DNA of 60,514 nucleotides from Candidatus Omnitrophota bacterium (GTDB lineage: Bacteria > Omnitrophota > Gorgyraeia > Gygaellales > Profunditerraquicolaceae). Made by a program: the position numbers and the translations under genes. The notes below the pieces were generated by a model. It had not been told where the DNA came from, did no database searches, and worked only from the letters and a program-made list of their open reading frames with translations. Of the stretch, positions 10,184 to 38,482 are shown piece by piece. How positions within the stretch are numbered: the first letter of the stretch is position 1; every line of letters begins with the position of its first letter. Location of the stretch: assembly GCA_041653115.1 (NCBI GenBank), contig JBAZGA010000008.1, positions 1 to 60,514 on the forward strand, given 5' to 3'.

Positions 10184-10208
10184 TAAATTGAGAAAGGAGC
10201 ATCAGGCC

Positions 10209-11548: not shown

Positions 11549-11633
11549 GGGCCTTCTCCTCTTTATCGGTCCCTGTTAAATGAATTATACCATAACGCCA
11601 TCTTAAAGACAATTTTTTTGTCCAAAAATTTAC

Positions 11634-11662
11634 TTGCTAAAATGATTATTTACGGTTATAAT
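11634..11662 (+). promoter_or_regulatory. sigma70-type promoter
   Basis: TTGCTA, 17 nt, TATAAT (11657-11662) in an AT-rich divergent gap. Confidence 0.6.
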
Positions 11663-11709
11663 TAAAATACAATAAGCATAAAAGAAAATTAACTTCTCAG
11701 GAGGGTAGC

Positions 11710-12126: not shown

Positions 12127-12150
12127 TTTTAGCCTGCCTTTAGAGATTGA

Positions 12151-13689
12151 TTAAACGAAAAAGTCCCTATCTAAGCCCCTGTACTGAATCGCTTCCGAAA
12201 GGTGCCCTGTTTTGATATCCCCGCCTCCCGCCAGATCGGCGATAGTCCTGGAGATCTTCAATATTTTATCATAGGCCCGGGCGCTGAAATTCAACTCTGT
12301 CATTGCCATCTTGAGCAATTCACTCCCCTCTTTGTCTAATATGCAGAACTTACGCACCTGCCTGTGGCTCATCTGGGCGTTGTAAAAAATGGGTTCTGAG
12401 GCCGTTTTGAAACGCTCTCGCTGAATAGCGCGAGCTCGGTTTACCCTTTCCTTAATCAGGGCAGAAGCTTCAGCGGCTAAATTGCCGGATAAGTCCTGAT
12501 ATCTTGCAGCAGGGATTTCAATGTGGATATCTATCCTGTCTAACAAAGGGCCTGATATTTTAGAGCGATAGCTGTGAATCTGTGTTGTTGAACAACCGCA
12601 GGAAGATTTGGGGTCGTTAAAGCGCCCGCATTTGCAGGGATTCATCGCGCAGACGAGCATGAAAGAAGCGGGAAAGACAAAAGATTTCAACGCCCGCGAG
12701 ATGCGGATAGAGCCGTCTTCCAGGGGCTGCCTCAATGCTTCTAAGGAATCGCGGCGGAATTCCGGCAGCTCATCCAGGAATAAGACTCCCTGATGACTCA
12801 GGCTGATTTGTCCGGGCTGGGGGATAGAGCCTCCGCCGACTAACGCGGTATTTGAGGCAGTATGGTGCGGGCTGCGGAAGGGGCGCCTGGCAACGATACC
12901 CTGCTTCAGCGGCAGAGCCCCGGCTGCAGAATGGATGCGGGTTATTTCCAATGCTTCCTCCAGGGTTAAATCCGGCATAATCGTGGGTATTCTTTTAGCA
13001 AGCATGGTCTTTCCGCTTCCCGGAGGCCCAATCATCAGGATATTGTGTCCGCCGGCAACCGCCACCTCCAGCGCTCTTTTTGCCAGATACTGGCCCTTAA
13101 CTTCCGATAAATCAAGGGGATAAGTACAATTTTCCCGGAATAGTTCTGCTAAGTCCATTTTAAAAGGCTGAACCATCTGGGGATTATGGAGAAATTCTAC
13201 TGTTTCTCTGAGCGTTTTCAAAGGCCAGATAGAGATATCCCTTACCGCGCAGGCTTCTTTAGCATTAGCTTCCGGCAGAATTATATTTTCTAGTTTGGAT
13301 TTGGCTGCGCTTAAGCTGACCGGTAAAATCCCTTTGCAGGGCCTAAGCGAGCCATCGAGGGATAATTCACCGAGAACATAGTAGTCTTTCAGGCGCTGGC
13401 TATTTAGCTGTTCGGTTGCCGCGAGTATCCCCAGGGCAATCGCCAGGTCAAAACACGCACCCTCTTTCTTTGTATCCGAAGGCGCTAAGCTGACAGTAAT
13501 TCTTTCGCTTGGCCAGGCAAACCCCGAATTTTTAATTGCCGATTTAACCCGTTCCTTACTTTCCCTGATTGCGGCATCTGCCAGGCCTACCAGCGTTACT
13601 GCCGGTAAGCCAGGAGAAACATCCACTTCTATCTCAATCGGATATGCTTCTATGCCCAAGAGCCCGAAACTAAAAACCCTTGCCAACAT
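12151..13689 (-). CDS. comM: YifB/ComM Mg-chelatase-like AAA+ ATPase
   Basis: VGLADAAIRESKERV, GGHNILMIGPPGSGKTML, FRSPHH, GVLFLDELPEF, AMNPCKCG, SGPLLDRID, SARAYDKILK. Confidence 0.92.
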   Translation of the reverse strand: MLARVFSFGLLGIEAYPIEIEVDVSPGLPAVTLVGLADAAIRESKERVKSAIKNSGFAWPSERITVSLAPSDTKKEGACFDLAIALGILAATEQLNSQRLKDYYVLGELSLDGSLRPCKGILPVSLSAAKSKLENIILPEANAKEACAVRDISIWPLKTLRETVEFLHNPQMVQPFKMDLAELFRENCTYPLDLSEVKGQYLAKRALEVAVAGGHNILMIGPPGSGKTMLAKRIPTIMPDLTLEEALEITRIHSAAGALPLKQGIVARRPFRSPHHTASNTALVGGGSIPQPGQISLSHQGVLFLDELPEFRRDSLEALRQPLEDGSIRISRALKSFVFPASFMLVCAMNPCKCGRFNDPKSSCGCSTTQIHSYRSKISGPLLDRIDIHIEIPAARYQDLSGNLAAEASALIKERVNRARAIQRERFKTASEPIFYNAQMSHRQVRKFCILDKEGSELLKMAMTELNFSARAYDKILKISRTIADLAGGGDIKTGHLSEAIQYRGLDRDFFV

Positions 13690-18280: not shown

Positions 18281-18309
18281 TTGACCGGCTGCGGGTTATG
18301 TTGTAAGTT
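18281..18309 (+). promoter_or_regulatory. Probable sigma70 promoter upstream of the lsrF-like gene
   Basis: TTGACC (18281-18286), 17 nt, TAAGTT (18304-18309). Confidence 0.5.
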
Positions 18310-18312
18310 ATT

Positions 18313-18402
18313 TACCTGGTCCCTCGCGTCAACGCCTGGATTCGCTGCAGACGGCTTCTTTGTACGCCCGGGATCAATTCGCAGACGCCGATAGACTAGG
18401 TA
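18313..18402 (+). other. Structured 90-nt leader / rod-like hairpin of unknown class
   Basis: TACCTGGTC 18313-18321/GACTAGGTA 18394-18402; GCGTC/GACGC; CCTGG/CCGGG; TGCAGA/TTTGTA (with G-U pairs); lies between the predicted promoter and the GGAGG RBS. Confidence 0.6.
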
Positions 18403-18421
18403 TAGCATAAGGAGGTATAAG

Positions 18422-19210
18422 ATGGAGTGGGGAATGAAAAACCGTTTGCGCCGATTAATTCAGCCCGACGGGCGCTGTTTCTTTCTGCCGATAGACCACG
18501 GCTATTTTCAGGGGCCGACGCGCTGTTTGGAGAAACCCGGAGAAACGATTAAGCCGTTAATTGAATTTTGCGACGCGCTTTTTGTCACCAGAGGGGTATT
18601 ACGCGCGGCAATAGACCCCTTGCAGACTAAACCGGTTATCTTGCGCGCCTCCGGAGGCACCAGTATGGCCGGTAAAGACCTGGCTAATGAAGGGCTCACT
18701 GCTTCGATAGAAGAAATTATCCGGCTGAATGCCTCGGCAGCAGGTGTTTCGGTTTTTATCGGCAGCGAATATGAGCATCAGACGATTATGAATTTAGCAA
18801 AATTAGTTAATCTTTGCGAAAATTACGGCATTCCGGTAATGGCCGTGACTGCCGTAGGCAAAGAATTGGAGAAGCGCGATGCGCGCTACCTGGCGCTGGC
18901 CTGCCGCATCTGCGCGGAAACCGGCGCGCGGGTAGTAAAGACATATTGGTGCGAAGATTTTGAGAAGGTAGTCTCGGGTTGTCCGGTCCCGGTAGTGATT
19001 GCCGGCGGCCCGAAATGCGAAAGCGAAAAAGAGGTCTTTGAATTTGTTTATGACGGCCTGCAAAAGGGGGCAATCGGCATAAACTTAGGAAGAAATGTCT
19101 GGCAGCACGCGCATCCGGTAGCAATGGCCAAGGCGCTAAAGTCAATTGTGCATGAAAAGGCAAACGTAAAGAAAGCCTGCGAGATATTTAACGAATCAAA
19201 AAGAAAATAA
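18422..19210 (+). CDS. lsrF: LsrF-like class I aldolase-fold thiolase (DhnA family)
   Basis: IDHGYFQGPT, RICAETGARVVKTYW (Schiff-base Lys), VVIAGG, NLGRNVWQ closely resemble LsrF. Confidence 0.8.
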   Translation: MEWGMKNRLRRLIQPDGRCFFLPIDHGYFQGPTRCLEKPGETIKPLIEFCDALFVTRGVLRAAIDPLQTKPVILRASGGTSMAGKDLANEGLTASIEEIIRLNASAAGVSVFIGSEYEHQTIMNLAKLVNLCENYGIPVMAVTAVGKELEKRDARYLALACRICAETGARVVKTYWCEDFEKVVSGCPVPVVIAGGPKCESEKEVFEFVYDGLQKGAIGINLGRNVWQHAHPVAMAKALKSIVHEKANVKKACEIFNESKRK

Positions 19211-19212
19211 AT

Positions 19213-20211
19213 ATGCAGGTTGCGATGTATTACAACAATCGGGATGTGCGCATCGAAGAAATGCCCAGGCCCAAGATCGGGCCGGATGAGTTACTGATTA
19301 AGGTCAGAGCTTCGGGAATTTGCGGCAGCGACGTGCTGGAATGGTACCGCCTGAAAAAAGCCCCCCTGGTTTTAGGGCATGAGGCAACCGGAGAAATTGC
19401 CGAAGCCGGCCAGGCTGTGCGGGAATACCGAATCGGTGACCGCGTTTTTGTTTCCCATCATGTGCCCTGTAACACGTGCCGTTATTGTTTAAGCGGCAAT
19501 CATACGGTTTGCGAAACGCTGCACACCACCAATTATTATCCCGGCGGTTTTTCCGAATATATCCGCGTGCCCAAAATAAATGTCGAGCGCGGAGTATTTA
19601 TCCTGCCCGCAGAGCTCTCCTTTGAAGAAGGCACGTTTATTGAGCCTTTGGCCTGCGTGCTGCGCGGCCAGAGGATGGCGGGCTTGAAACCCGGGCAGAA
19701 GGTTTTGATTTTAGGCGCCGGCATTTCCGGTTTATTGCATCTTTTAGCCGGCCGCACTAAAGGCGTCAAAGAAATTATGATCACGGACATCAATGATTTT
19801 CGCCTGCAATTAGCCAAAGATTTAGGCGCGGTCAGCGTTTTTCATGCTCAAGACGAGAAAATCGCCAATCTGAAGGCAGACTTAGTGATTGTCTGCACCG
19901 GAGCAAGCGCAGCTTTCGAACAGGCCTTGAAATGCGTTGACCGCGCCGGTACAATCTTGTGTTTTGCCGCTACCGAGCCGGGCGTTAACCTTTCTATCCC
20001 GGTGAATGATTTCTGGCGCCAGAGTATAAAAATTATGCATTCTTACGGAGCCAGCCCCCAGGACCTTAAGGAGGCAATAGAGCTGCTGAAGAGAAAAAGC
20101 ATCCCCGTGGAAAGATTGATTACCCACCGTTTAAGCCTGCAAGAGGCAGGCCAGGGTTTCAAGCTGGTAGCCGGAGCCGCCGATTGTCTGAAGGTCATCC
20201 TTATCCCCTAA
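19213..20211 (+). CDS. Zinc-dependent alcohol/polyol dehydrogenase (MDR)
   Basis: GICGSD, LGHEATG, CNTCRYCLSGNHTVC structural Zn site, EPLAC, GAGISG. Confidence 0.92.
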   Translation: MQVAMYYNNRDVRIEEMPRPKIGPDELLIKVRASGICGSDVLEWYRLKKAPLVLGHEATGEIAEAGQAVREYRIGDRVFVSHHVPCNTCRYCLSGNHTVCETLHTTNYYPGGFSEYIRVPKINVERGVFILPAELSFEEGTFIEPLACVLRGQRMAGLKPGQKVLILGAGISGLLHLLAGRTKGVKEIMITDINDFRLQLAKDLGAVSVFHAQDEKIANLKADLVIVCTGASAAFEQALKCVDRAGTILCFAATEPGVNLSIPVNDFWRQSIKIMHSYGASPQDLKEAIELLKRKSIPVERLITHRLSLQEAGQGFKLVAGAADCLKVILIP

Positions 20212-20252: not shown

Positions 20253-20281
20253 TTGACAGGCCGGAATTTTACTGGCATAAT
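20253..20281 (+). promoter_or_regulatory. Strong sigma70 promoter at the head of the PKS operon
   Basis: TTGACA (20253-20258), 17 nt, TGG-CATAAT extended -10 (20276-20281). Confidence 0.75.
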
Positions 20282-20319: not shown

Positions 20320-20592
20320 ATGGACTGGAATCCCGAAGTTAAAGCGCGCCTAGAGGCAATGGTGGCAAAAATCCCGGTTTTTCACCGCCATATTACGGAG
20401 GTGGCAGTAATTGAAAGAGCCGAGGAGAATGCCTTAGCCCGCCGGTCAGCGCAAGTGGAAGAACAAGATGTCATCGCCGCCTTTTTTTCCGATGTCCCTT
20501 CTCCCTTTTACAGTATGATGGTCAGGCTGCTTGAACAGTCGGGATTCGATTATAAAAAATACGGTTTTCCCAAGACGCAAAATAAAAAATGA
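20320..20592 (+). CDS. Small helical protein resembling DUF2621 / PCP_red-type domain
   Basis: MDWNPEVKARLE...IPVFHR...AEENA...VEEQDVI pattern resembles this family; by-eye match only. Confidence 0.55.
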   Translation: MDWNPEVKARLEAMVAKIPVFHRHITEVAVIERAEENALARRSAQVEEQDVIAAFFSDVPSPFYSMMVRLLEQSGFDYKKYGFPKTQNKK

Positions 20593-21593
20593 GGGTGACA
20601 GTAATCGGCGCCGGCGCAATCGGCAGCCTGGTTGCCGGCTATTTGAAAAATCAAGGCAGAGAAATCAGCTTAGTCGGCCACGCTGATGCCGTGAAAGCCA
20701 TCCAGGCCGCAGGGTTAAAGATTTCCGGAGTAAGGGGTGACTTTACCGTTCCCCTCGAGATTACGGAAAAATTAACCGGAGCAGCCGACCTGGTAATTCT
20801 GGCGACAAAAACCCAGGATATCGAAGCCGCAATAAAAGATAATCTGCAATTCTTAAGCAACTCCCTGATTCTCACGACGCAAAACGGCATCCAGGCGGAT
20901 TATTTAGCCGCCAAATATCTAGATAAGGAAAAAATCATCTCCAGTATTGTCATGTTCGGCGCTACTTGTTTGAAACCGGGTGAAGTAGTGCATAATTTTG
21001 AAGGCAGTTGGATTATCGGCCGGCTCTCGGGTAAAAATGACACCAGCGTAGAAGATATCGGCGCGGTTTTAAATAAAATTTTCCCCGTGGTGCCGAGCGA
21101 AGAATTGCTGGGAATGAAATATCTGAAAATTTTTGTCAACGCCAATAATTGTATCCCGGCAATCCTGGGGAAAAGCATGCAGGAGGCATTTGCCGACCCC
21201 CCGGTCAGCTCGATTAGTATCGCTATCTGGAAGGAAGGCTTGGAAATCGTGCAAAAAAGTAAAATTAACCTGGTCTCCCTGCCGGATTTTCCCTTAGAGC
21301 GCTTGACTAAATTAACCGCTTTACCGGCAGAGGCAGCGGCAAAAATTTATTCCGGGATTATGATGAATTTAAGCAAGGAGCCGCTTTACGGCTCAATACT
21401 GCAGAGCATTAGACGCGGCAGGCCGTCGGAAATCGATTATTTAAACGGCGAATTCGTCGCTCTCGCCAAGAAAAACGGCCTCAGGGCCAGCTTAAATGAA
21501 AAATTAGTCGAGCTGGTGCACCGGGTAGAAAAGAACGGCAGTTTTTTGAGTAAAGAAGAATTATTAACCGAGACCAAAGGCCTCTATAATTAA
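20589..21593 (+). CDS. Ketopantoate reductase (PanE/ApbA) family oxidoreductase
   Basis: VIGAGAIGS, ATKTQD, TTQNGI, YLKIFVN, GSILQSIRRGRPSEIDYLNG; true substrate unknown. Confidence 0.85.
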   Translation: MRVTVIGAGAIGSLVAGYLKNQGREISLVGHADAVKAIQAAGLKISGVRGDFTVPLEITEKLTGAADLVILATKTQDIEAAIKDNLQFLSNSLILTTQNGIQADYLAAKYLDKEKIISSIVMFGATCLKPGEVVHNFEGSWIIGRLSGKNDTSVEDIGAVLNKIFPVVPSEELLGMKYLKIFVNANNCIPAILGKSMQEAFADPPVSSISIAIWKEGLEIVQKSKINLVSLPDFPLERLTKLTALPAEAAAKIYSGIMMNLSKEPLYGSILQSIRRGRPSEIDYLNGEFVALAKKNGLRASLNEKLVELVHRVEKNGSFLSKEELLTETKGLYN

Positions 21594-22199
21594 ATGAAGC
21601 AGGTGAATACCCCCTTTCCCAGGTTAAAACTTACCGTCACCGGCGTTTTTGGCGAATGCTATCACGGCTATAAAATCGGCGATGAATTGATACTGGAAGA
21701 CTTTACCCATCCGCCGGAATTTTTTTGCTTAGGCCTGGCGCACGCGCTCTTTCCGGTTATCTATGCGCTTAGTTTCGGGGCTAAATTCCCCTTTCGCGAC
21801 AATCAGCGCTCGCTCTCAGTTACCTGCCCGGACGGCGGGAAGCTGGAGTTTAAGGCGGAGATTTTGGATAAGGCGGGTAAAGTAGAAACTTTGGCCAAAG
21901 ACCCCAATTTTAAAGGCCCCAATCCTAAAAAAATGGTGATTGAAGTAGTCAAAGCCAAAGGCAAATGTACTTTCGGCTATAAGGTCGGCGACAAATGGGA
22001 AACCACCGGTTTAAAATGTATCCCTGGTTTCTGCGGAGCAGCTTTTCACTGCGCTTTCCCCGCGCTCTTTGCCTTGAATTTCGGCGCCAAGTTTTTCTTT
22101 ATGGATAAACCGGACAGCATCGATACAGTTACTTGTCCCGACGGCGGAAATATTGTCTTTAAAGTCACCCGATTAGAAGGTGTGGAAAATAGAAAGTAG
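21594..22199 (+). CDS. Tandem TIGR04076-like Cys-rich double-domain protein
   Basis: Two internal repeats: GECYHGYKIGD..FFCLGLAHALFP..TCPDGG and GKCTFGYKVGD..GFCGAAFHCAFP..TCPDGG. Confidence 0.75.
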   Translation: MKQVNTPFPRLKLTVTGVFGECYHGYKIGDELILEDFTHPPEFFCLGLAHALFPVIYALSFGAKFPFRDNQRSLSVTCPDGGKLEFKAEILDKAGKVETLAKDPNFKGPNPKKMVIEVVKAKGKCTFGYKVGDKWETTGLKCIPGFCGAAFHCAFPALFALNFGAKFFFMDKPDSIDTVTCPDGGNIVFKVTRLEGVENRK

Positions 22200-22244
22200 C
22201 CCAATGTAAAGCGTCCCGAGCAAATTAGGCCAAAGCGACCAAAG

Positions 22245-23507
22245 ATGAATAAACGAAGAGTAGTGATTACGGGTTTAGGCGTGATTTCCCCTAACGGCAT
22301 TGGTAAAGACAATGTCTGGCAGGCGATGTCTGGGGGCAAATCGGCAGTAAAAAGGGTAGACAGTTTCGATGTTTCCATTTTTAACACAAAAATCGCCGCC
22401 GAGGTCAGGGACTTTGACCCTTTTCGGCTCGGCCTGACCCATGATGAAGTGATGCGCATGGACAGGTACGTGCAGTTTGGCGTGCTTGGCGCGGATATGG
22501 CGATTAAAGATAGCGGGCTGAATTTTTCTAAAGAAGACCCTGGACGTATCGGCATCTGCTTAGCCAATGCCATTTGCGGCACAAAATATATGGAAGAGGA
22601 GTTCGCCCTGGTCACTGACGACGGCAAAAAGCCGATTGACCCGGCCAAGGTGCGGCCGGACCTTTATGACGCGGCAATGTTTAATACGCCTTCCATTGAG
22701 ATTGCCGCGCGTTACGGCCTCCAGGGAATCTGCAATACTTTATCTACGGGCTGCACTGCCGGCACTGATTCTGTGGGTTTTGGCTTAGAGGCGATTCAAG
22801 ACGGAGAACAGGAGATTATGATTTGCGGGGCGGCAGAAGCGCCGATTACCCCGATTACTTTCGGCGCCTTTGACGTGGTAAATGTCCTGGCAGTCAATAA
22901 CGAAGAGCCGGAAAAGGCCTCGCGGCCCTTTGACAAGAAACGCAATGGCTTTGTTTTATCCGAAGGCGCGGGGATTTTAATCCTTGAAGAATTAAACCAT
23001 GCCCTGAAGCGCAATGCCTATATTTACGCCGAAGTCCTGGGCTTTGGCACCAGCTGCAATGCCTATCATATGACGGATTTGCCGGCAGACGGCACAGCCA
23101 TGGCTAATTGTATTAAGCTGGCCATAGCCGATGCCGGAATTAAAGCGCGGGAAATCGATTATATCAATGCCCACGGCTCCTCTACCAAGATGAATGATAT
23201 TTTCGAAACCGCTGCTTACAAAACGGTCTTTGGCGATTATGCCTATAAGCTCCCGGTGAGCTCCCTAAAGTCGATGATCGGGCATCCTCTGGCTGCGGCT
23301 AATGCCATAGAAATGACCGTCTGCGCGCAGATTTTCGCCAAGAATCTACTCCCTCCGACGATAAACCAGGAGGAGAAAGACCCTTTATGCGATTTGGATT
23401 ATATCCCGAATGTGGCGCGGGAGAAAAAAGTGAAGATGATTATCAAGACTGCCAGCGGCTTCTCGGGAATTCACTCCGCGCTAATTATCAAAAGGTTTGC
23501 AGGATAA
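22245..23507 (+). CDS. Type II PKS ketosynthase alpha (KS)
   Basis: RRVVITGLG, MDRYVQF, active site LSTGCTAGTDSVG (KS-alpha STGCT), SRPFDKKRNGFV, DYINAHGSST, SSLKSMIGH. Confidence 0.9.
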   Translation: MNKRRVVITGLGVISPNGIGKDNVWQAMSGGKSAVKRVDSFDVSIFNTKIAAEVRDFDPFRLGLTHDEVMRMDRYVQFGVLGADMAIKDSGLNFSKEDPGRIGICLANAICGTKYMEEEFALVTDDGKKPIDPAKVRPDLYDAAMFNTPSIEIAARYGLQGICNTLSTGCTAGTDSVGFGLEAIQDGEQEIMICGAAEAPITPITFGAFDVVNVLAVNNEEPEKASRPFDKKRNGFVLSEGAGILILEELNHALKRNAYIYAEVLGFGTSCNAYHMTDLPADGTAMANCIKLAIADAGIKAREIDYINAHGSSTKMNDIFETAAYKTVFGDYAYKLPVSSLKSMIGHPLAAANAIEMTVCAQIFAKNLLPPTINQEEKDPLCDLDYIPNVAREKKVKMIIKTASGFSGIHSALIIKRFAG

Positions 23508-24740
23508 ATGGAAAAAACAGCAATTACCGGCTTAGGAATAGTAGCACCCTCAGGCATCGGCCGCAGGCAATTCTGGGCGAATATCAGGGCCGGCCGCTCT
23601 TTTATCAAAGAGATTAATCGTTTTGACGCCTCCCTTTACCCGTCGCATATCGCCGGCCAGATTGACGAATTAAATAAATACAGCACTGTCTCCGAGCGGC
23701 TCTTGAAAAAAATGGATACTTTTTCGCATATGGCATTGATTGCCGCGGAGCTGGCGCTGCAGGATGCCGGGGTCGAGATTAGAAAAGAAGACCCTAACCT
23801 CGTCGGCATATTTTTAGGCAATGCTATCGGCGGCTGGCTCTATGCCGAGACAGAGCTGCGCGATATGTACATTGAAGGCCGCGAAGGCGTCTCTCCTTAT
23901 ATGGCCTCAGCCTGGTTTCCGGCTGCGCCCCAGGGCCAAGTCTCCATTTATTACGGGATCAAGGGTTTTTCCAAGACTGTGGTCGCTGACAGGGCAAGTT
24001 CCCTGGAAGCGATTGGTTATGCCCGCAAGACTTTAAGCAAGGGAAAATTAAATCTGATTTTAGCCGGCGGTATGGAAGCGCCGGTTACGCCTTACGCGCT
24101 TTTATGCTGCAATACTTACGGCGGGCTCTCTACAGATAATGCGCACCCGGAGAGCGCTTACCGGCCTTTTGACCGCAAGCGCAGCGGTTTTGTCATTGGA
24201 GAAGGCGCCGGGATTATGGTGATGGAGAGCGTAGAGCGGGCCAAGAAACGCAATGCCACTATCTGGGCGGAGGTATCCGGCTACGGCACCAGCTGCGACG
24301 GAGTTGACCGCATTCAACCGGATGTTTCCGGAAAAGAATTAGCCCGGGCCATGCGCATGGCTTTGCTGGATGCCAAAATTACGCCTGAACAAATCGACTA
24401 CATCAGTTTAGACGGCTTAGCCGTAGAAATCTGGGATAAAAGCGAAGTGAATGCGATAAAAGAAGTTTTCGGCGCCAGCGCTAAAAAAATCCCGGTCAGC
24501 TGCCCGAAAACGATGTTCGGCAACCTGCTCGGCGCCTCGGGCGCAGTGGATTTAATCATTACCATTCTGGCGATGGAGCATAATTTAATTCCGCCGACAC
24601 TTAATCTGGACGACCCGGACTTAAACGGGCTGAATTATATCAAACAGGAAGCTAAAGAAGGAAAAATTAATAAGGCGATGATTATCTCGCGCGGCAGAGG
24701 CGGGATAAATTCAGTTTTGGTAGTTGAGAAAGGAGCTTAA
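23508..24740 (+). CDS. Type II PKS chain-length factor (KS-beta)
   Basis: ITGLGIVAPSG, AWFPAAPQGQVSI, VADRASSLEAIGYAR (no Cys), YRPFD, SLDGLA in place of AHG; starts directly after the KS-alpha stop (TAAATG). Confidence 0.88.
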   Translation: MEKTAITGLGIVAPSGIGRRQFWANIRAGRSFIKEINRFDASLYPSHIAGQIDELNKYSTVSERLLKKMDTFSHMALIAAELALQDAGVEIRKEDPNLVGIFLGNAIGGWLYAETELRDMYIEGREGVSPYMASAWFPAAPQGQVSIYYGIKGFSKTVVADRASSLEAIGYARKTLSKGKLNLILAGGMEAPVTPYALLCCNTYGGLSTDNAHPESAYRPFDRKRSGFVIGEGAGIMVMESVERAKKRNATIWAEVSGYGTSCDGVDRIQPDVSGKELARAMRMALLDAKITPEQIDYISLDGLAVEIWDKSEVNAIKEVFGASAKKIPVSCPKTMFGNLLGASGAVDLIITILAMEHNLIPPTLNLDDPDLNGLNYIKQEAKEGKINKAMIISRGRGGINSVLVVEKGA

Positions 24741-24744
24741 AGCA

Positions 24745-26205
24745 ATGAAGATTCTTTTTGTGATGCCGAAAGTCGGCGCCTGGGCTACGCACGGGATACA
24801 CCGTTCGCCGAACCAGCTCTATGCGCACTGGGCAGCCTATGTGCGGGAGAGGGGTTATGCTGATGTGGCGGTGATTGACGGCAAAGCCGAGCAGATTCCC
24901 ATGGATGAACTGGTGGAGCGGGTGAAAAGTAAAAACCCCGATGTAGTAGTAATGGGCGAGCAGCTGCACGGCTACGGCGGATACGGAGTCTTAAGGCATT
25001 TTAAGGAAGCAGCGCAAAAGATTAAACGCGCACTCCCGAAAACAAAGATAATCCTGGGCGGTTTATGGTATTCGGCGATGCCCGTACCGACCCTGGAAGA
25101 GAACCCGGAAGTAGATTTCGTGGTCATGGGCGAAGAAGAGTCCTTCGGAGATTTAATTGAGGCGATAGATAAGAATAAGGATTTAAAAGACGTGGGCGGA
25201 GTGACTTCTCGCCTGGACGGAAAAATCGTCATGGGGCCGCATAAGCCGCTCCTGGAAGATTTGGATAAACTCCCCTTGCCGGCATATGATTTATTTCCCA
25301 TGGATAAATACGTCGGCCACACTTACTGGAAGCCGTTTGTGGATATGGTTACTTCCCGCGGCTGCCCGTCCGCGTGCACTTTCTGTTACGAGTGGGACCA
25401 GTTTGACCCGCGCTCCCCGTCGGACTTCTTGAAATGGCGCGCCAAATCACCGGAACGCGTGATTGAAGAAATGGAGCTCCTGCAGAACAAATACGGGACC
25501 AAGGTGGTAGTTATCCAGGACGACAATTTTAACGTTGACCCGGCACGCGTGAAAAAATTCTGTGAATTAAAAAAGCAGAAAAAGATAGATATCAAATGGG
25601 TTTCCCTGGGCCGGGCGATCGACTGGGTGAACTGCGAGTCCATCCTTCCTTTAATGAAGGAGACAGGGCTTTTTATGGGTGTATTCGGCATCGAGGTGAC
25701 CACGCAGTCGGAGCTGAAGAAAATCGCCAAAGGCATCACCATTGAGCAGATTCAAAAGACGATTGAAATCCTGCGTAAGCACGATATCGCCATTGTCGCC
25801 GACATTATGATGGGTTTTGATTACGATACCGAGGCGATTGTCAAGCAGCGCTTTGAATTCACCGATGCGGTTGACCCGGATATTCTCTGGGTCGGTTATG
25901 TCACGCCGGCGCCGAACTCTCCGATGTGGCGGATTGCCTTAAAGAAGAACTGGATTGACCCGAAAAAAGTGGATTTCAGCACCTGGGACTTTCTGCACCC
26001 GGTCATTCCTACCGACTACCTGACGATTGAGGATTTAGGCCGGCTGGGCTCCTGGTGTATGCGCGAATTCTTCTCCAAACCGGGCAGAATTAACCGGATT
26101 ATGGAGAGTAATTTTGACCCCCTGGCCAAGCTTTGCTTCAAGGATGTGATGGACGGCATTAATAAATGGGAAGCAGCCGCGACCAAGGGCGAAGTGCAGA
26201 TATAA
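24745..26205 (+). CDS. Cobalamin-dependent radical SAM enzyme
   Basis: N-terminal B12-binding-type Rossmann domain (PDVVVMG, IILGG, DFVVMGEEE), LPLPAYDL, TSRGCPSACTFC, DDNFN; ATG 24745 after AAGGAG preferred over TTG 24724. Confidence 0.88.
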   Translation: MKILFVMPKVGAWATHGIHRSPNQLYAHWAAYVRERGYADVAVIDGKAEQIPMDELVERVKSKNPDVVVMGEQLHGYGGYGVLRHFKEAAQKIKRALPKTKIILGGLWYSAMPVPTLEENPEVDFVVMGEEESFGDLIEAIDKNKDLKDVGGVTSRLDGKIVMGPHKPLLEDLDKLPLPAYDLFPMDKYVGHTYWKPFVDMVTSRGCPSACTFCYEWDQFDPRSPSDFLKWRAKSPERVIEEMELLQNKYGTKVVVIQDDNFNVDPARVKKFCELKKQKKIDIKWVSLGRAIDWVNCESILPLMKETGLFMGVFGIEVTTQSELKKIAKGITIEQIQKTIEILRKHDIAIVADIMMGFDYDTEAIVKQRFEFTDAVDPDILWVGYVTPAPNSPMWRIALKKNWIDPKKVDFSTWDFLHPVIPTDYLTIEDLGRLGSWCMREFFSKPGRINRIMESNFDPLAKLCFKDVMDGINKWEAAATKGEVQI

Positions 26206-26227
26206 AATTTTAAGCGGAGGTTATGCA

Positions 26228-26464
26228 ATGGACACCAAAGCAAAAATTAAAGAAGTTTTAGTGAATTTATTAAAGGTCAGGCCGGAAGAGCTGAAGGACG
26301 AAATCAATCTCACCGATTCTATCGGCGTGGATTCTACGGAAATGGTAGAGACCGTGATTGCCCTGGAAAAAGCCTTCTCTACCAAGCTTAGCCCGCAGGA
26401 AATCACCAAGTTCTCAAGCATTAATGATATCGAAAAAATAATTCAGTCAAAGCTGGGCAAATAA
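26228..26464 (+). CDS. Acyl carrier protein
   Basis: 78 aa, acidic, IGVDSTEMVE phosphopantetheine serine motif. Confidence 0.9.
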   Translation: MDTKAKIKEVLVNLLKVRPEELKDEINLTDSIGVDSTEMVETVIALEKAFSTKLSPQEITKFSSINDIEKIIQSKLGK

Positions 26465-26466
26465 TA

Positions 26467-27267: not shown

Positions 27268-27272
27268 GGGGG

Positions 27273-27319: not shown

Positions 27320-27345
27320 TCTATTACTAGGGAGGAGGAAAATTT

Positions 27346-29758: not shown

Positions 29759-29760
29759 TT

Positions 29761-32867: not shown

Positions 32868-33617
32868 ATGCAGATGCATAAAGAAGTACATTTGACCGGC
32901 AAAGACCTGACCCAGATGGTGCAATTGCGGCCGCAGGATGTGGGTAAATACGCGATTGTGCCTGGTCCAAAGGACAGGCTGGATGTCTTGATGAAGAAAC
33001 TCGAAAATCCAATGAAGAATTTTTCCTTTATGGAATATACGATGTATACCGGAATCTATCAGGGGATAAAAATCACCGCGATTAACGGCGGCAGATTTTC
33101 TACGGATACTTCGATTACCACGGAAGTAATGTGCAATGCCGGCATCCAGGATATTATCCGCATCGGTACTTGCGGCGCGCTGGATGAGAAGATTAAAGTC
33201 GGCGATTTAATCGTCGTGGATAAAGTCATCCGCGGAGACGGAGTCACGCCTTATTATGTGGATAAGAATTTTGAGACCAAGGCCGATAAGAAGCTCGCTG
33301 ATACCTTATATGAAGTGGCTAAAGGCATGGGAATAACTGTACACCGCGGCACTACCTGGACTACGGATGCGCTTTTACGCGAAACCCGGGAAATCGTGGA
33401 AGCCAAGCGTAAAGAAGGCGCGATTGCCGTGGATATGGTCTCCTCAACACTCCTGACCATTTGCCAGACCTACAATATCAGGGCCGGCTCAATCCTGGCA
33501 GTAAGCGATAATGTAATTACCGGGGAAATGGGCTTTATGAATCCGCTTTATTATATGGCAGAGGCACATTTAATCAGCATTGCCTTGGAAACCGTGAAAA
33601 AATTAGACGGGGTATGA
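32868..33617 (+). CDS. Nucleoside phosphorylase (PNP/UDP family)
   Basis: IVPGPKDR, IIRIGTCGAL, HRGTTWTTDALLRET, AVDMVSS, AVSDN. Confidence 0.9.
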   Translation: MQMHKEVHLTGKDLTQMVQLRPQDVGKYAIVPGPKDRLDVLMKKLENPMKNFSFMEYTMYTGIYQGIKITAINGGRFSTDTSITTEVMCNAGIQDIIRIGTCGALDEKIKVGDLIVVDKVIRGDGVTPYYVDKNFETKADKKLADTLYEVAKGMGITVHRGTTWTTDALLRETREIVEAKRKEGAIAVDMVSSTLLTICQTYNIRAGSILAVSDNVITGEMGFMNPLYYMAEAHLISIALETVKKLDGV

Positions 33618-34540
33618 TGAGATTTTCGCCGCTATTCTGGCCGGTAGAATTAAAAGGCCGGACAATTTATATTCTTGATGAGACTCTGCTGCCGCATAAG
33701 GTAAAGCATATCCAGGCCAGAAATTATCAGCAAGCAGTGACGGCAATCAAACAGATGAAGACGCGCGCAGTAGGTCAAGTGCTTTTAGTAATGTACACAT
33801 TCCTGCTGGAAGCTAAGAAAAATCATTCCCTGGCGCATTTAAAAAAAGTTGCTCATGCATTCTGCGCCAGCCGGCCAACGCTCTCTTTTCGCTCTCTGAC
33901 CGAAATGGTCTTAGCTTGGGCAAAACAGGGAGCGCCTTTAGAAAAATATATCTTTGGTTTTTTAGAGATACTAAAAGAAAAACGCATCCAGCAGGCTAAG
34001 CAAGCCGCAAAATTAATTAAAAATAATGACGTCATCCTGACGCATTGCAATATCAGCGGACAGATGCCTTTAATCGCCGATTTCTGCCGAAAGGATAAGA
34101 AAAAAATCAGTTTTTTTGTCACCGAGACCCGGCCATATTTACAGGGAGCGCGTTTAACTGCCTGGGAATTGAGACGCCAGGGATTTGCAGTGACCTTGAT
34201 TACGGATAATATGGTGGCAGCAGTGATGTCACAGGGAAAAGTGGATAAGGTGATTGTCGGCGCGGATAACCTGGCGCAAAACGGCGATATTGCCAATAAG
34301 GTCGGCACATACCAGATTGCGGTAGTCGCCAGGCATTTTCATATCCCTTTTTATGTGCTCTGCCCGCCGAAATCCGGAGCCAAGAGCGGCGCTGAAATTA
34401 AAATTGAGATGCGTCCGGAAAAGGAAATGCTTTACTTTGACGGACGGCTGATTGCCGCTAAAGGAGTAAGGGGTTATTATCCGGCATTTGACATTACCCC
34501 GCGTAATTTAATTACCCGGCACATTTATTTAGAGGTCTAA
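33614..34540 (+). CDS. mtnA: MtnA-like 5-substituted-ribose-1-phosphate isomerase
   Basis: ILDETLLP, SRPT, ILTHCN, ETRPYLQGARLTAWEL, VGADNLAQNGDIANKVGTY, YPAFDITP. Confidence 0.9.
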   Translation: MMRFSPLFWPVELKGRTIYILDETLLPHKVKHIQARNYQQAVTAIKQMKTRAVGQVLLVMYTFLLEAKKNHSLAHLKKVAHAFCASRPTLSFRSLTEMVLAWAKQGAPLEKYIFGFLEILKEKRIQQAKQAAKLIKNNDVILTHCNISGQMPLIADFCRKDKKKISFFVTETRPYLQGARLTAWELRRQGFAVTLITDNMVAAVMSQGKVDKVIVGADNLAQNGDIANKVGTYQIAVVARHFHIPFYVLCPPKSGAKSGAEIKIEMRPEKEMLYFDGRLIAAKGVRGYYPAFDITPRNLITRHIYLEV

Positions 34541-34541
34541 G

Positions 34542-35543
34542 ATGATATTCGCTAAAGAGAGAAAATTAAGAAAAGAAATGATTGAAATCGGTAAGAGATT
34601 GTATGCTTTACGACTGGTCGCCGCGTCAGGCGGAAACTTAAGCGCCAGGATAGATGAAAGGAATATCCTGGTAACGGCTACGGCTACGGAATTGGGAAAT
34701 TTAAAGTCCGACGATATTATCAGGGTTAATTTAGATAAAGAGACGGATTTAAAAAATCAGCAGCTGACCACGGAATTTCCTTTGCACCGGATGATCTATG
34801 AAAATTTGCCGGCCCGGATTGTAATCCACTGTCATCCGGCTTTAAGCAATGCCTATTTCGCGGTTTATCCCGACTTAAAAGTGCTTACCTTTGAAAGCAA
34901 GCTGCACTTAGGCAATATCCCGGTGATAGAGCAGGATACGCCGGCAGTAAGCAAGCCGGATTTAGTCGTTGCTGCCTTAAATACGAATAATTTAGTGGTG
35001 CTCAAGAATCACGGGGTAGTTAGTCTCGGCAATACCTTTCAGGAGGCGTTTAACTTAGTGGAAACTTTAGAAGAAGCAGTCAGGACTGTGGCCACGGCGC
35101 GGCTCTTTAAGAAAGAAATCGTGGATGATTTAGATAAAGAATTAAAAGCCAGCTTAAAGAGCCAGGAGGCTTATGAGATGTTCTCTACCGAGCATATCCA
35201 GGCGATTGTTGACCTGGCGAATCAGGATGAATTTATTGCTCAAAAAGGCCGGGAATTGGATTTGACCATGGAATATGCGATTAAGCTGGACGGCACAGGC
35301 AAGGCGCATAAATTCACCTTTGAAAAAGGGGAAATTACCAAATTAGAACCCGGCGAGAATGCCCAATTTGTGGCTTCAGCTCCGGCAGAGGTCTGGAAAA
35401 TGATATTTTTAGGAAAACTTGACCCCTTTGTAGCGACAATGCAGGGAAAGATGAAATTAAAAGGCGAATTAGGCAAGCTCTCGCGCTGGTACGTTCCTTT
35501 TAGCCGCCTTTTCGAACTCTTTAAGCAGGTTAAAATCAAATGA
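34542..35543 (+). CDS. Class II aldolase (FucA/Ald2 type) fused to a C-terminal SCP2 lipid-binding domain
   Basis: GGNLSAR, TTEFPLH, IHCHP, LKNHGV; C-terminal VWKMIFLGKLDPFVATMQGKMKLKG is a typical SCP2 signature. Confidence 0.85.
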   Translation: MIFAKERKLRKEMIEIGKRLYALRLVAASGGNLSARIDERNILVTATATELGNLKSDDIIRVNLDKETDLKNQQLTTEFPLHRMIYENLPARIVIHCHPALSNAYFAVYPDLKVLTFESKLHLGNIPVIEQDTPAVSKPDLVVAALNTNNLVVLKNHGVVSLGNTFQEAFNLVETLEEAVRTVATARLFKKEIVDDLDKELKASLKSQEAYEMFSTEHIQAIVDLANQDEFIAQKGRELDLTMEYAIKLDGTGKAHKFTFEKGEITKLEPGENAQFVASAPAEVWKMIFLGKLDPFVATMQGKMKLKGELGKLSRWYVPFSRLFELFKQVKIK

Positions 35544-36973
35544 AGCAGAAAATCATTAATCCTGGGACCGGAGAAACAGTCAGCGAAGTTGATATTTTTC
35601 AGGCCCAAGATATAGAAGCGGCAATTGTTGCGGCACGCAAAAGCTTTGACAATGGCGCCTGGAGGAATCTTCTCTTGCCAAAGCGAAAAAAAGTATTACT
35701 AAAAATTGCCGAGGGGATTTTAGAGCAGGCGCAGCAGCTGGCAAAGTTAGAGACCCTGAATACCGGCAAGCCGATTAAAGAAACCACTTTTATGGATATA
35801 CCTTCAGCCAGCCGCTCCTTTGGGTATATTGCCGAGAATTTCGAAGATTTTTTAAAAGAGGAAACAATTAACGCCGAGAACGCTAAAAGTCACCTGGTGC
35901 GCGAGCCAATCGGCGCGGTAGTTTTAATTATACCCTGGAATTATCCGCTTTTAATCGCCTCCTGGAAACTTGCTTCGGCTCTGGCCGCCGGAAACAGCGT
36001 CATCCTAAAGCCCTCCAGCCTCACGCCTTTGACTGCCTTGGAATTAGAGAAGATCGCGCAAAGAGCCGGGCTTCCTGACGGCGTGTTAAAGGTAGTGGTA
36101 GCTAAAGGTTCTGAAGCAGGTGAAGCGCTCTGCAGCGATAAGAGAGTGGATATGATTTCTTTTACCGGCAGCAATGCCGCAGGAAAAGATATCGTTACTT
36201 ATGCCGCTAAAAATGTTAAGAAGCTGATTATGGAATTAGGCGGCAAGTCCGCGAGCATTATTTTAAAAGACGCGGACTTGGAATTGGCCGTGAATGGCTC
36301 GCTCTGCTCCATCTTTTTGAACCAAGGCCAGATGTGCACGGCGATGTCGCGGATATTTATCGCGGATGAGGTTTATGATAAATTCACGGCAGATTTTGTA
36401 GAGAAGGCAAAACGGATTAAATTAGGGGACGGCTTGAATTATGAGACCCAAATGGGGCCGCTGATTTCCCGCGAACAGCGGAAGAAGGTCGTTGCTTTTA
36501 TAGAAAAAGCAACGATTGAAGGCGCAAAGATACTTTGCGGCGGGAAAATACCGGATGACCCCGAGCTAAAGGGGGGTTTCTTCTTTGAGCCGACAGTCTT
36601 AACGCAGGTAAAACCGGGAATGCAGATTTTCCAGGAAGAAGTTTTTGGGCCGGTGGTTTGTTTGAGCCGCTTTTCCAGGCTGGAAGAGGCAGTGAACCTG
36701 GCCAATGCCACGGATTTCGCCTTGGCAGCTTGTATCTGGTCTCAAGATAGCGCAAAAGCTAAAGAGTTAGCCAAAGAAATTAATGCCGGCACAGTCTGGA
36801 TTAATACTTACGGGATGTTTTATAATGAAGTCCCTTACGGCGGATTTAAAGAGAGCGGTTTTGGCAAAGAATTGGGCAAAGAAGGCTTTTTAGAATATAC
36901 GCGCCTGAAAAATATCTTTCTTGACCAGGCCAAAGATGCCAAGCCATTGGTTAATTACTGGTACGGTCTTTAA
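35540..36973 (+). CDS. NAD(P)-dependent aldehyde dehydrogenase
   Basis: PWNYP, LKPS, FTGS, ELGGKS, QGQMCTA, EEVFGPV, PYGGFKESGFG. Confidence 0.95.
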   Translation: MKQKIINPGTGETVSEVDIFQAQDIEAAIVAARKSFDNGAWRNLLLPKRKKVLLKIAEGILEQAQQLAKLETLNTGKPIKETTFMDIPSASRSFGYIAENFEDFLKEETINAENAKSHLVREPIGAVVLIIPWNYPLLIASWKLASALAAGNSVILKPSSLTPLTALELEKIAQRAGLPDGVLKVVVAKGSEAGEALCSDKRVDMISFTGSNAAGKDIVTYAAKNVKKLIMELGGKSASIILKDADLELAVNGSLCSIFLNQGQMCTAMSRIFIADEVYDKFTADFVEKAKRIKLGDGLNYETQMGPLISREQRKKVVAFIEKATIEGAKILCGGKIPDDPELKGGFFFEPTVLTQVKPGMQIFQEEVFGPVVCLSRFSRLEEAVNLANATDFALAACIWSQDSAKAKELAKEINAGTVWINTYGMFYNEVPYGGFKESGFGKELGKEGFLEYTRLKNIFLDQAKDAKPLVNYWYGL

Positions 36974-36976: not shown

Positions 36977-38482
36977 ATGAATATCAAAGAAATTTTAGAA
37001 GCCAGGGTTAAAACACACGCCGATAAAGTTGCAGTTATCTTTAAGGGTGAAAATTTAACCTTTCGACAATTACGGGATAATGCTTTTTGCCTGGCCAATA
37101 GCTTGCTTGATTTAGGCCTGAAAAAAGGCGATAAGGCGGCGATTTACCTGCCGAGCTGGCCGGAGTATATTTACAGTTATTTAGCGCTCTGGTCAATCGG
37201 TGTTACGGCTGTGCCTTTGGATTTTATGCTCACCCAGGATGAGCTGATCTCCTGTGTTACTCATTCAGAGGCAAAAATTCTTATTGCTAAGCCCAAAGCC
37301 AGCATTTCCTTAGCGGCAATCAAAGAAAACTGCCCGAGTTTAAAAGAGATTATTGCCTGTAAAGATACAAAGCAGGAGTTTCTTGCTTTCGAAGAATTAT
37401 TAAAAAAAGGCGCGCATGCAATCCCGGCGGGTAAAATCAGTGACCAGGATTACGCGATTATTTTCTATACTTCAGGAACTACCGGCCGGCCCAAAGGAGT
37501 CTTGATAAACTACCGGCAGTTAGAAGCGCCGCCAAAGGCAATGACGCATTTTGTGGATTTTACGGATAAGGACATTGCTTTATGCTCGCTTCCTTTTTCG
37601 CATATCGGCGGTCTGATTTATTTGCAGAACTGTTTGTCTTTCGGCATCAGTATTATTTTGATGGAGCATTTTATGCCCGGGGAATTCCTGAAAAATATCC
37701 AGAAGTTTAAGGTGACCTGTTTCTGGGTAGTGCCTTCGATGTATTACGCGGTTTTACAATTAAAAGAATTCGAGAGTTTTGATTTAGGCAGCTTACGCTG
37801 GGTAGTGACATTCGGCGCTTCCAGCTCTCCGGATGCCTTACGCCGTTTTCAGCAGTATTGCCCCAAGGCGCACCTTTTGAATGGCTGGGGCCTGACTGAA
37901 ACCAATGCCCCGACCACAGTGATTCCGCTTGGCTCGACTAAAATTGAAAGCGTCGGCCGTGCAGCGCCCTGGATAGAAGTAAAAATCCTTGATGAAAATG
38001 GTAAAGAATTGCCTGTTGGCCGGGTAGGCGAGGTAGTGGTAAAAGGCTGGGTAGTGACTGACGGTTATTACAAAGACCCGCAGGCTACTGCCCAAGCTAT
38101 CCGCAATGGCTGGTTTCATACCGGCGATTTGGGAAAGTTTGACCCTGAAGGCGATCTTTATATCGTCGGCAGGATTAAGGAGATGATTAAGGTCGCCGGT
38201 GAAATCGTCTTTGAGCCGGAAGTAGAAGCCGCAATCCATAAACACCCGGATATTGCCGAGGTAGCTGTGATTGGCGTTGCCGATAAATTAAGGGGCGAAC
38301 TCCCCAAGGCGTTTATCGTTGCCAAAGAAGGCAAGACCTTAGACGAGGAGGCCTTGCGTTATTTCTGCCGCGAACACCTTGCCCACTTTAAAATCCCCCA
38401 CTATTTTGAATTCCGGGATGCTCTGCCCAAGAACCGCACGGGAAAAATCGATAAGGAAAAATTACGAAGCGGCCATGAATAG
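36977..38482 (+). CDS. AMP-forming acyl-CoA synthetase
   Basis: YTSGTTGRPKG, GWGLTE, WFHTGDLG, GRIKEMI, LPKNRTGKI. Confidence 0.93.
   Translation: MNIKEILEARVKTHADKVAVIFKGENLTFRQLRDNAFCLANSLLDLGLKKGDKAAIYLPSWPEYIYSYLALWSIGVTAVPLDFMLTQDELISCVTHSEAKILIAKPKASISLAAIKENCPSLKEIIACKDTKQEFLAFEELLKKGAHAIPAGKISDQDYAIIFYTSGTTGRPKGVLINYRQLEAPPKAMTHFVDFTDKDIALCSLPFSHIGGLIYLQNCLSFGISIILMEHFMPGEFLKNIQKFKVTCFWVVPSMYYAVLQLKEFESFDLGSLRWVVTFGASSSPDALRRFQQYCPKAHLLNGWGLTETNAPTTVIPLGSTKIESVGRAAPWIEVKILDENGKELPVGRVGEVVVKGWVVTDGYYKDPQATAQAIRNGWFHTGDLGKFDPEGDLYIVGRIKEMIKVAGEIVFEPEVEAAIHKHPDIAEVAVIGVADKLRGELPKAFIVAKEGKTLDEEALRYFCREHLAHFKIPHYFEFRDALPKNRTGKIDKEKLRSGHE

Follow-up and report, generated by a model that had tools for sequence, protein, structure and literature searches.

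Within a 60,514-nucleotide stretch of DNA from a Candidatus Omnitrophota bacterium (GenBank assembly GCA_041653115.1, contig JBAZGA010000008.1, positions 1 to 60,514; hereafter the window), two adjacent genes at 18422-20211 encode an LsrF-like protein and a medium-chain zinc dehydrogenase (MDR). Our analysis partly supports the view that this uncharacterized and widely distributed gene cassette joins a member of the LsrF-type thiolase family to the salvage of 5'-deoxynucleosides. As to its role, we give somewhat less than an even chance to an oxidative branch in which 5-deoxy-D-ribulose-1-phosphate would be converted to dihydroxyacetone phosphate (DHAP) and acetyl-CoA, a proposal that draws on protein sequences and gene neighborhoods. 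The two genes and the signals at their borders are the following.

18409..18415, + strand: ribosome-binding site AAGGAGG, 6 nt 5' of the ATG of the LsrF-like gene (read from the sequence)
18422..19210, + strand: LsrF-family class I aldolase/thiolase of 262 aa, a member of the clade with Asn at the position of E. coli LsrF residue 251 (from NF006081, 3GKF, residue mapping and a tree)
19213..20211, + strand: NAD-type MDR of the polyol/threonine dehydrogenase kind, 332 aa (from Pfam ADH_N and ADH_zinc_N)
20253..20281, + strand: sigma-70-like promoter, TTGACA, 17 nt, CATAAT, with TG (11/12 matches; a consensus match only)

The first-pass annotation of this DNA had described an lsrF-like gene coupled to a polyol-dehydrogenase-like MDR directly upstream of a polyketide synthase (PKS) operon, and this description holds. 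Both open reading frames were confirmed, with the LsrF-like stop codon TAA at 19208-19210 followed by the MDR start codon 2 nt later, and the zinc site of the MDR is of the polyol type. A ketosynthase (KS)/PKS-like operon comes next and is opened by its own candidate promoter, about 40 bases past the MDR stop codon. Since this promoter lies between the MDR gene and the operon, we regard the pair as a two-gene unit whose 3' boundary the promoter marks. A riboswitch or other structured leader 5' of the pair was considered and rejected: the upstream leader has no Rfam match at the gathering or E-value threshold, and the 136-nt leader (window 18290-18425) folds no better than its dinucleotide shuffles (z = -0.28).

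The LsrF-like protein matches Pfam DeoC and belongs to the DeoC/DhnA-fold class I aldolase family. It passes NF006081, the NCBIfam equivalog model of the thiolase that acts on 3-hydroxy-2,4-pentanedione-5-phosphate (P-HPD), with 360.2 bits against a cut-off of 297 (model positions 32-290 of 291), and the E. coli LsrF structure 3GKF matches it over its whole length with 260 bits. Identity to genuine lsr-operon LsrFs is 44-52%, and it is 47-50% for the E. coli and Salmonella proteins (3GKF, 4P2V), which share its DhnA-type TIM-barrel family. Related families score below their cut-offs, namely ADH synthase (AroA', TIGR01949; 193 vs 299 bits) and archaeal-type class I fructose-1,6-bisphosphate (FBP) aldolase (NF040816; 127 vs 430 bits), and on the latter score a glycolytic FBP aldolase of class I was rejected. 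With ADH synthase as the family next in closeness, an AroA'-type entry into the shikimate pathway via 6-deoxy-5-ketofructose-1-phosphate (DKFP) was also considered; it was rejected on the score, on the lack of the catalytic Tyr, and on the identity of the partner, which is an MDR and not a 3-dehydroquinate (DHQ) synthase II.

The active site largely follows that of E. coli LsrF, from whose structure paper we take the roles of the active-site and phosphate-site residues (PMC2728841). In the window protein (E. coli LsrF numbering in brackets) the equivalents are Asp25 (D57), His26 (H58), the Schiff-base Lys173 (K203) and Tyr175 (Tyr205), with a phosphate site made up of His26, Gly195/196 (Gly226/227) and Gly223/Arg224 (Gly253/Arg254). 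The equivalents of Lys203, Asp57, Tyr205, Gly226/227 and Gly253/Arg254 are invariant in 84/84 members of the clade, and that of His58 is present in 83/84. Thr143 aligns with the catalytic beta-5 Tyr of MJ0400 and of the T. tenax FBP aldolase (FBPA), and LsrF also has Thr at this position in place of the Tyr of other class I aldolases. The conserved Lys, general-base Asp and phosphate-binding residues suggest that the substrate is phosphorylated and has a DHAP-like end. A maximum-likelihood tree unites the Asn251 sequences in a single clade (SH-aLRT 87) separate from the Asp251 sequences; this monophyletic group occurs in anaerobic, mostly uncultured phyla and, in contrast to E. coli LsrF, the window protein has no N-terminal domain-swap arm of about 32 residues.

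The MDR has the catalytic zinc ligands Cys37, His56, Glu57 and Glu144 (in EPL), the pattern of the polyol/threonine/butanediol subgroup, and a structural zinc site formed by Cys86, 89, 92 and 100. Its Rossmann motif is G168xG170xxG173, and Asp192 at the end of the second Rossmann strand marks it as NAD-type. The zinc ligands, the GxGxxG motif and Asp192 are kept in at least 97% of 75 sequences, and Arg46, His82, His83 and Arg151 are invariant in the family. The protein stays below every NCBIfam equivalog cut-off. Its highest scores are with Tdh (NF003808, 174 vs 380 bits; TIGR00692, 162 vs 458), followed by IolM (151 bits), GatD (136), AdhP (100) and Ahr (89), so that the secondary-alcohol types Tdh and GatD score higher than the aldehyde-reductase types AdhP and Ahr; the best PDB match is a sorbitol dehydrogenase (152 bits). 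Enzymes with a Cys/His-Glu/Glu zinc site, such as sorbitol dehydrogenase, Tdh, butanediol dehydrogenase and galactitol-1-phosphate 5-dehydrogenase, typically oxidize the penultimate carbinol, on the side of the substrate that carries no phosphate. This preference profile would fit C4 of a 5-deoxypentulose-1-phosphate better than the carbon beside CH2OP.

Joined to nucleoside salvage, the two predicted activities would give the following route. 5'-Deoxyadenosine would be converted to 5-deoxy-D-ribulose-1-phosphate by a phosphorylase (or a nucleosidase plus a kinase) and an MtnA-type isomerase, and the NAD-dependent MDR would then oxidize the C4 hydroxyl, the penultimate carbinol, to give P-HPD. 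The first-pass annotation had argued that this oxidation yields the very diketone on which LsrF acts, and the structures agree: CH2OP-CO-CHOH-CHOH-CH3 oxidized at C4 is CH2OP-CO-CHOH-CO-CH3, which is P-HPD, and the chemistry is sound and balanced. LsrF cleaves P-HPD with CoA to DHAP and acetyl-CoA. By analogy with the E. coli enzyme, Lys173 would form a Schiff base at the carbonyl beside CH2OP, and CoA would attack the acetyl carbonyl to release the two products. The net reaction would be 5-deoxyribulose-1-phosphate + NAD+ + CoA -> DHAP + acetyl-CoA + NADH. No free aldehyde would arise, and the route would be an energy-conserving alternative to an exit encoded 14 kb downstream that leads by an aldolase to acetaldehyde, then to acetate, and by a CoA ligase to the thioester. 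In this scheme we infer the substrate, the order of the two steps, the dependence on CoA and the physiological source.

Tdh and Kbl provide a precedent for oxidation of a CH3-CHOH group followed by thiolytic cleavage to acetyl-CoA. There, as in our proposal, an MDR generates a methyl ketone with a second activating group in the beta position, and the C-C bond is then cleaved with CoA to free acetyl-CoA; Tdh is also the top NCBIfam model for the window MDR, albeit far below its cut-off. The cleaving enzymes differ, in that Kbl is a pyridoxal phosphate enzyme with an unphosphorylated substrate whereas the LsrF-like protein has a Schiff-base aldolase fold with a phosphate site.

The pairing of the two genes is conserved well beyond the window. 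A scan of one genome per species returned 382 relatives of the LsrF-like protein, of which the best 80 were examined; these and 7 loci from exact-protein look-ups make up 87 loci, each taken with 10-kb flanks. The best 80 are 72-82% identical and come from Omnitrophota, Nitrospirota, Thermodesulfobacteriota/Syntrophia, Chloroflexota, Aminicenantes, Latescibacterota, Fibrobacterota, Elusimicrobiota, Brocadiales, Deferribacterota and others. An MDR gene adjoins the LsrF-like gene in 76 of the 87 loci, in at least 10 mostly anaerobic phyla and nearly always directly downstream on the same strand. The distance matrix of the LsrF-like proteins correlates with that of the MDRs (Mantel r = 0.41, reached in 0/999 permutations), a value to which shared species history contributes. 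The LsrF-like and MDR genes form a cassette, which probably acts as one functional unit.

Other dehydrogenases take the place of the MDR elsewhere in the family. Three Chloroflexota loci (L023, L037 and L046, ~10001-13350) have no MDR, and an unrelated dehydrogenase of the Fe-ADH family directly follows their Asn251 LsrF-like gene; in two of them, a protein passing the cut-off for the nickel-dependent lactate racemase LarA comes after the Fe-ADH gene. Other LsrF homologues sit with GlpD-like dehydrogenases or with short-chain dehydrogenases/reductases (SDR). Because these unrelated types (MDR, Fe-ADH, GlpD-like, SDR) recur beside LsrF-family genes, a dehydrogenase partner looks like a general requirement of the family. 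As far as gene order can tell, their recurrence supports the idea that the dehydrogenase makes the diketone which the LsrF-type enzyme would then cleave.

The neighborhoods of the pair outside Omnitrophota have a housekeeping character. In Syntrophia its neighbors are leuB, purD and purH. The leuB-like gene, which lies upstream of the pair, passes the 3-isopropylmalate dehydrogenase cut-off; it is a bona fide leuB and was set aside as an unrelated housekeeping neighbor. Upstream of the pair in Nitrospirota lie dnaB, a Memo-like gene and a gene for a Cys-rich protein. In nine Nitrospirota loci (L022:9322-10233 and 8 others) a PfkB-family kinase gene lies directly 3' of the MDR gene; the kinases are 80-85% identical and have no specific NCBIfam assignment. 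This kinase may supply a phosphorylating step of the same pathway.

Such neighborhoods, together with very high conservation, would suit a central biosynthetic role, and one can be conceived. C4 oxidation of 1-deoxy-D-xylulose-5-phosphate (DXP) also yields P-HPD, so the pair might interconvert a DXP-like 1-deoxy-pentulose-5-phosphate with DHAP and acetyl-CoA by redox chemistry at the carbon beside CH2OP, possibly as a Dxs-independent route of biosynthesis. The GlpD-like dehydrogenases found with other LsrF homologues do oxidize beside CH2OP. We nevertheless consider this very unlikely: Asp192 indicates NAD and not NADP, characterized MDRs of this type act on the penultimate carbon of the non-phosphorylated end, the synteny in Omnitrophota is with catabolic nucleoside genes, and the Claisen direction is thermodynamically uphill.

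The pair also stands apart from quorum-sensing genes. The first-pass annotation had noted the absence of lsrK, lsrG and lsrACDB from the window, and tblastn with the Klebsiella lsr operon bears this out, detecting no homologue of LsrK, R, A, C, D, B or G in the 60.5 kb. Across the 87 loci with their flanks the same search found no homologue of LsrR, C, D, B or G, and lsr-type matches were limited to LsrA-like ABC ATPases, seen in three Chloroflexota loci, and to a fragment in L060, about 10 kb off, with weak likeness to LsrK (FGGY kinase). A function in autoinducer-2 (AI-2) processing was therefore rejected on context and on the separate clade. The LsrF-like protein could still be conceived as a genuine enzyme for phosphorylated 4,5-dihydroxy-2,3-pentanedione (phospho-DPD), with lsrK and lsrG elsewhere in the genome, as its passing of the NCBIfam LsrF equivalog would allow. 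The lack of lsr context in loci from at least 10 phyla, the separation from lsr-operon LsrFs with a difference at residue 251, and a conserved partner that is a dehydrogenase and not LsrG leave this exceedingly improbable.

Asp251-type LsrFs, for their part, occur outside lsr operons in uncharacterized sugar operons on plasmids of Shinella (L092), Sagittula (L095), Parabacteroides (L090) and Aureibacter (L093). In one of these operons the lsrF gene keeps company with those of a class II aldolase/SDR bifunctional protein, an ABC transporter and an FGGY kinase; in another, with those of an FGGY kinase, a class II aldolase and a GlpD-like dehydrogenase; and in two, with those of DhaK-DhaL. The range of the LsrF family extends beyond AI-2 processing.

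A tie of the cassette to 5'-deoxynucleoside salvage is suggested by its company in Omnitrophota. The first-pass annotation had placed a phosphorylase and MtnA at 32.9-34.5 kb as the expected source of 5-deoxyribulose-1-phosphate, and both genes are present there, at the head of a larger set.

32868..33617, + strand: PNP_UDP-family nucleoside phosphorylase (PNP), candidate supplier of (5-deoxy)ribose-1-phosphate (NCBIfam; adjoins MtnA in relatives)
33614..34540, + strand: MtnA-like (eIF-2B family) sugar-1-phosphate isomerase, candidate supplier of pentulose-1-phosphate (TIGR00524)
34542..35543, + strand: class II aldolase::SCP2 fusion, an exit of the canonical DHAP-shunt type (Pfam Aldolase_II and SCP2; alignment)
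35540..36973, + strand: aldehyde dehydrogenase (ALDH) (NCBIfam)
36977..38482, + strand: AMP-forming acyl-CoA ligase (NCBIfam)

The isomerase passes TIGR00524 (198 bits, cut-off 186) and scores 226-244 bits with MtnA models, just below their cut-offs. The aldolase::SCP2 fusion retains the catalytic Glu and the three zinc His residues (HxH, His) of its family. Thus the DHAP-shunt set of a phosphorylase, an MtnA-type isomerase and a class II aldolase in one operon is present at 32868-35543, and the aldolase, ALDH and ligase look like a complete route that would convert the C4'-C5' fragment via aldehyde and acid to an acyl-CoA. The first-pass annotation had proposed examining whether such pairs lie near mtnA. 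In about 20 Omnitrophota loci the pair does lie within or beside the PNP-MtnA-aldolase::SCP2-ALDH-ligase operon, in at least three gene orders. Inside the operon it takes one of two alternative positions, either between the aldolase and ALDH genes or after ALDH. The arrangement in the window and L031 is another, with the pair at the start of the KS operon of the same supercluster, and in five loci it adjoins ligase and lipid-export genes of the supercluster.

The LsrF-MDR pair is not a defined component of the DHAP shunt or of related 5-deoxyribose salvage (MtnP or MtnN plus MtnK, MtnA and Ald2; DrdK/DrdI/DrdA). The likeness lies in the phosphorylase and MtnA-like isomerase that accompany the pair in Omnitrophota, and in a proposed input, 5-deoxyribulose-1-phosphate, and product, DHAP, common to both. 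The difference lies in the exit, since the class II aldolase of the shunt frees an aldehyde whereas the proposed branch would oxidize first and then cleave thiolytically to acetyl-CoA. An aldolase exit is also present in the window, in SCP2-fused form, and if the oxidative branch is right the organism has two exits.

The identity of the phosphorylase leaves room for a different substrate. Its best models are those of uridine phosphorylase and DeoD, both below cut-off, and it is not of the methylthioadenosine phosphorylase (MTAP) type. The same two-step chemistry might then act on another pentulose-1-phosphate, turning D-ribulose-1-phosphate from ordinary nucleosides into DHAP and glycolyl-CoA, or 5-methylthioribulose-1-phosphate, derived from methylthioadenosine (MTA), into DHAP and methylthioacetyl-CoA. 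The terminal CH2OH-CHOH of ribulose-1-phosphate is the classic sorbitol dehydrogenase motif, in keeping with the best PDB match of the MDR, and DHAP-shunt enzymes are bifunctional for MTA and 5'-deoxyadenosine (PMC10986504). On the other hand, no datum singles out either pentulose, and the MtnA-like isomerase scores far higher against MtnA models than against ribose-1,5-bisphosphate isomerase. Glycolyl-CoA and methylthioacetyl-CoA, moreover, are not known to have an obvious fate. We judge this option unlikely.

Several findings weigh against the oxidative branch. One concerns the active site. In E. coli LsrF, Asp251 lies 2.9 Å from the Schiff-base Lys and was proposed to be catalytic (PMC2728841). 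This residue is specific to LsrF, the position being occupied by Ala in ADH synthase and FBP aldolase. It is kept in 7/7 other LsrFs (Klebsiella, Bacillus, Lacticaseibacillus, Parabacteroides, Aureibacter, Shinella and Sagittula) and replaced by Asn (Asn221 in the window protein) in 84/84 clade members. The first-pass annotation had carried the function of LsrF over directly, and this did not stand: given the replacement, P-HPD thiolase activity is not simply transferable, the protein is not a plain LsrF orthologue, and the reaction of the Asn251 enzyme may differ from that of LsrF.

A plain class I aldolase is one such alternative. It would cleave a ketose-1-phosphate (of the 5-deoxyribulose-1-phosphate, fuculose-1-phosphate or rhamnulose-1-phosphate type) to DHAP and an aldehyde, which the dehydrogenase would then reduce or oxidize in the manner of the DHAP-shunt alcohol dehydrogenase or FucO. 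The DhnA fold with its conserved Schiff-base Lys and general-base Asp would allow this, and the loss of Asp251 leaves the site nearer to those of ADH synthase and FBP aldolase. The weak best matches of the Chloroflexota Fe-ADH partner include lactaldehyde reductase, with a lactate racemase gene next to it, and the Nitrospirota trio of MDR, PfkB kinase and DeoC/LacD-family aldolase recalls the galactitol/tagatose pathway. Yet, like LsrF, the protein has Thr in place of the Tyr that serves as proton shuttle in archaeal-type class I aldolases and ADH synthase, and it is the LsrF model that it passes, with FBP aldolase and ADH synthase far below cut-off. The zinc site of the MDR, too, is of the polyol/secondary-alcohol type and not the Cys-His-Cys of most aldehyde reductases. 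In sum we hold a plain aldolase to be improbable.

The remaining objections to the oxidative branch come from its genomic setting. With a phosphorylase unlike MTAP, the nucleoside substrate is uncertain as far as profile scores go. Since the aldolase exit after MtnA would give the same products (DHAP plus an acyl-CoA), the pair is not needed to complete salvage in this organism and would be redundant there. Furthermore, a metagenome search with the aldolase::SCP2 protein as query gave 19 loci, and in 18 of them the PNP-MtnA-aldolase::SCP2-ALDH-ligase genes are contiguous without the pair. The salvage-like module is therefore self-sufficient, and the pair is a cassette in its own right, which in Omnitrophota tends to stay close by. 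Its place at the head of the KS operon is not universal either, because the metagenome contig L112 (L112:2-2644) has the DUF2621-like gene that opens this operon right beside the aldolase::SCP2-ALDH block, with no LsrF-MDR pair between. Outside Omnitrophota, no mtnA, phosphorylase or MtnK was found within 10 kb of the pair, and in the loci examined the co-location with mtnA is confined to that phylum. The LsrF-like relatives are 72-84% identical across phyla, which is unusually high for a salvage enzyme. Finally, short class II aldolases adjoin the pair in unrelated lineages (L028, L054, L074) and also lie beside the Asp251 LsrFs of Shinella and Sagittula, a recurrence that hints at a sequential, not parallel, role which our model does not explain. 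Of the overall interpretation given in the first-pass annotation, the pair, the chemistry and the co-location with mtnA remain; it had missed the aldolase exit at 34.5-38.5 kb, and the pair is usually absent from the module.

Each turnover of a radical S-adenosylmethionine (SAM) enzyme makes 5'-deoxyadenosine, an inhibitor of the enzymes that produce it. Apart from some special cases, the DHAP shunt of the aldolase type is the only route known for its disposal. If the oxidative branch is true, an acetaldehyde-free, thioester-conserving route of two enzymes would fill a gap in the 5'-deoxyadenosine disposal of strict anaerobes. A gene that databases label 'autoinducer-2 aldolase/thiolase' in hundreds of genomes without nearby quorum-sensing genes would gain a function as well, and LsrF would be recast as a recruit from core metabolism. 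We are doubtful of the broadest form of this idea, in which the Asn251 cassette supplies the missing last step, free of aldehydes, in the 5'-deoxyadenosine salvage of strict anaerobes from at least 10 phyla, leading directly to DHAP and acetyl-CoA, and enterobacterial LsrF is a later offshoot of an older housekeeping family. If the idea is wrong, the cassette is still among the more conserved uncharacterized enzyme pairs of uncultured anaerobes. The first-pass annotation had left it to a literature search whether the route was already described, and none describing it was found: full-text searches, with most subscription journals outside their coverage, returned no paper linking LsrF to 5-deoxyribose, 5-deoxyribulose, 5'-deoxyadenosine or the DHAP shunt, and no description of an LsrF-dehydrogenase pair. 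Recent papers on the DHAP shunt describe the aldolase exit only (PMC10986504).

The closest relatives of the window's proteins all come from metagenome-assembled genomes of Omnitrophota. Its DNA is covered nearly in full by one groundwater metagenome run, and the runs that contain the locus are DNA metagenomes only. Among the products of the operon 3' of the pair are a DUF2621-like protein, a PanE-like protein, two ketosynthases, a B12-radical SAM enzyme and cyclases. The operon forms part of a conserved Omnitrophota supercluster that surrounds the pair (window 20320-31061 and 38379-39521). Besides the KS/KS pair, the B12-radical SAM enzyme and two cyclases, this supercluster encodes an MFS transporter, an SDR, an Amidohydro_2 protein and an RlmN-like radical SAM enzyme, and its counterparts in relatives add MMPL, DUF1329 and DUF1302 export genes. 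A 2026 preprint (10.64898/2026.05.19.726425) is said to deal with ladderane KS/CLF-like FabF pairs and may be relevant to the KS pair of the window. In the fluoroacetate and chloroethylmalonyl-CoA pathways, 5'-halo-5'-deoxyadenosine passes through PNP, an MtnA-like isomerase, an aldolase and ALDH, and in Salinispora the product of the route opened by SalL feeds a PKS. Their trimming of a SAM-derived 5'-deoxynucleoside alongside a PKS resembles the Omnitrophota supercluster; they differ in that neither is known to have an LsrF-like enzyme or an MDR, and no halogenase was seen in the window.

Three further gene arrangements were observed near the cassette or the salvage module. In divergent Omnitrophota operons, a conserved open reading frame of about 158 aa with no family match lies between the MtnA-like and aldolase::SCP2 genes (L001:6708-7184, L009:4028-4501 and L034:2719-3222); this subgroup has no PNP, and a B12-radical SAM gene and a class IV aminotransferase gene lie upstream. 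Directly 5' of the cassette in seven loci (L074:4819-5031, L016, L017, L060, L065, L077 and L079), from Latescibacterota, Aminicenantes, Brocadiales and Omnitrophota, is a gene for a four-Cys protein of about 70 aa (…EYKRREFCKD..CPVQ…C…C…HHWL…); it matches no Pfam or NCBIfam model and is absent from the window. In three loci of the Syntrophia type (L064:10841-11511, L075:947-1617 and L078:10868-11538), a pair of genes for 86-aa and 137-aa proteins lies between the LsrF-like and MDR genes. By size and arrangement only, this insert looks like a toxin-antitoxin pair, and it splits the otherwise tight cassette.

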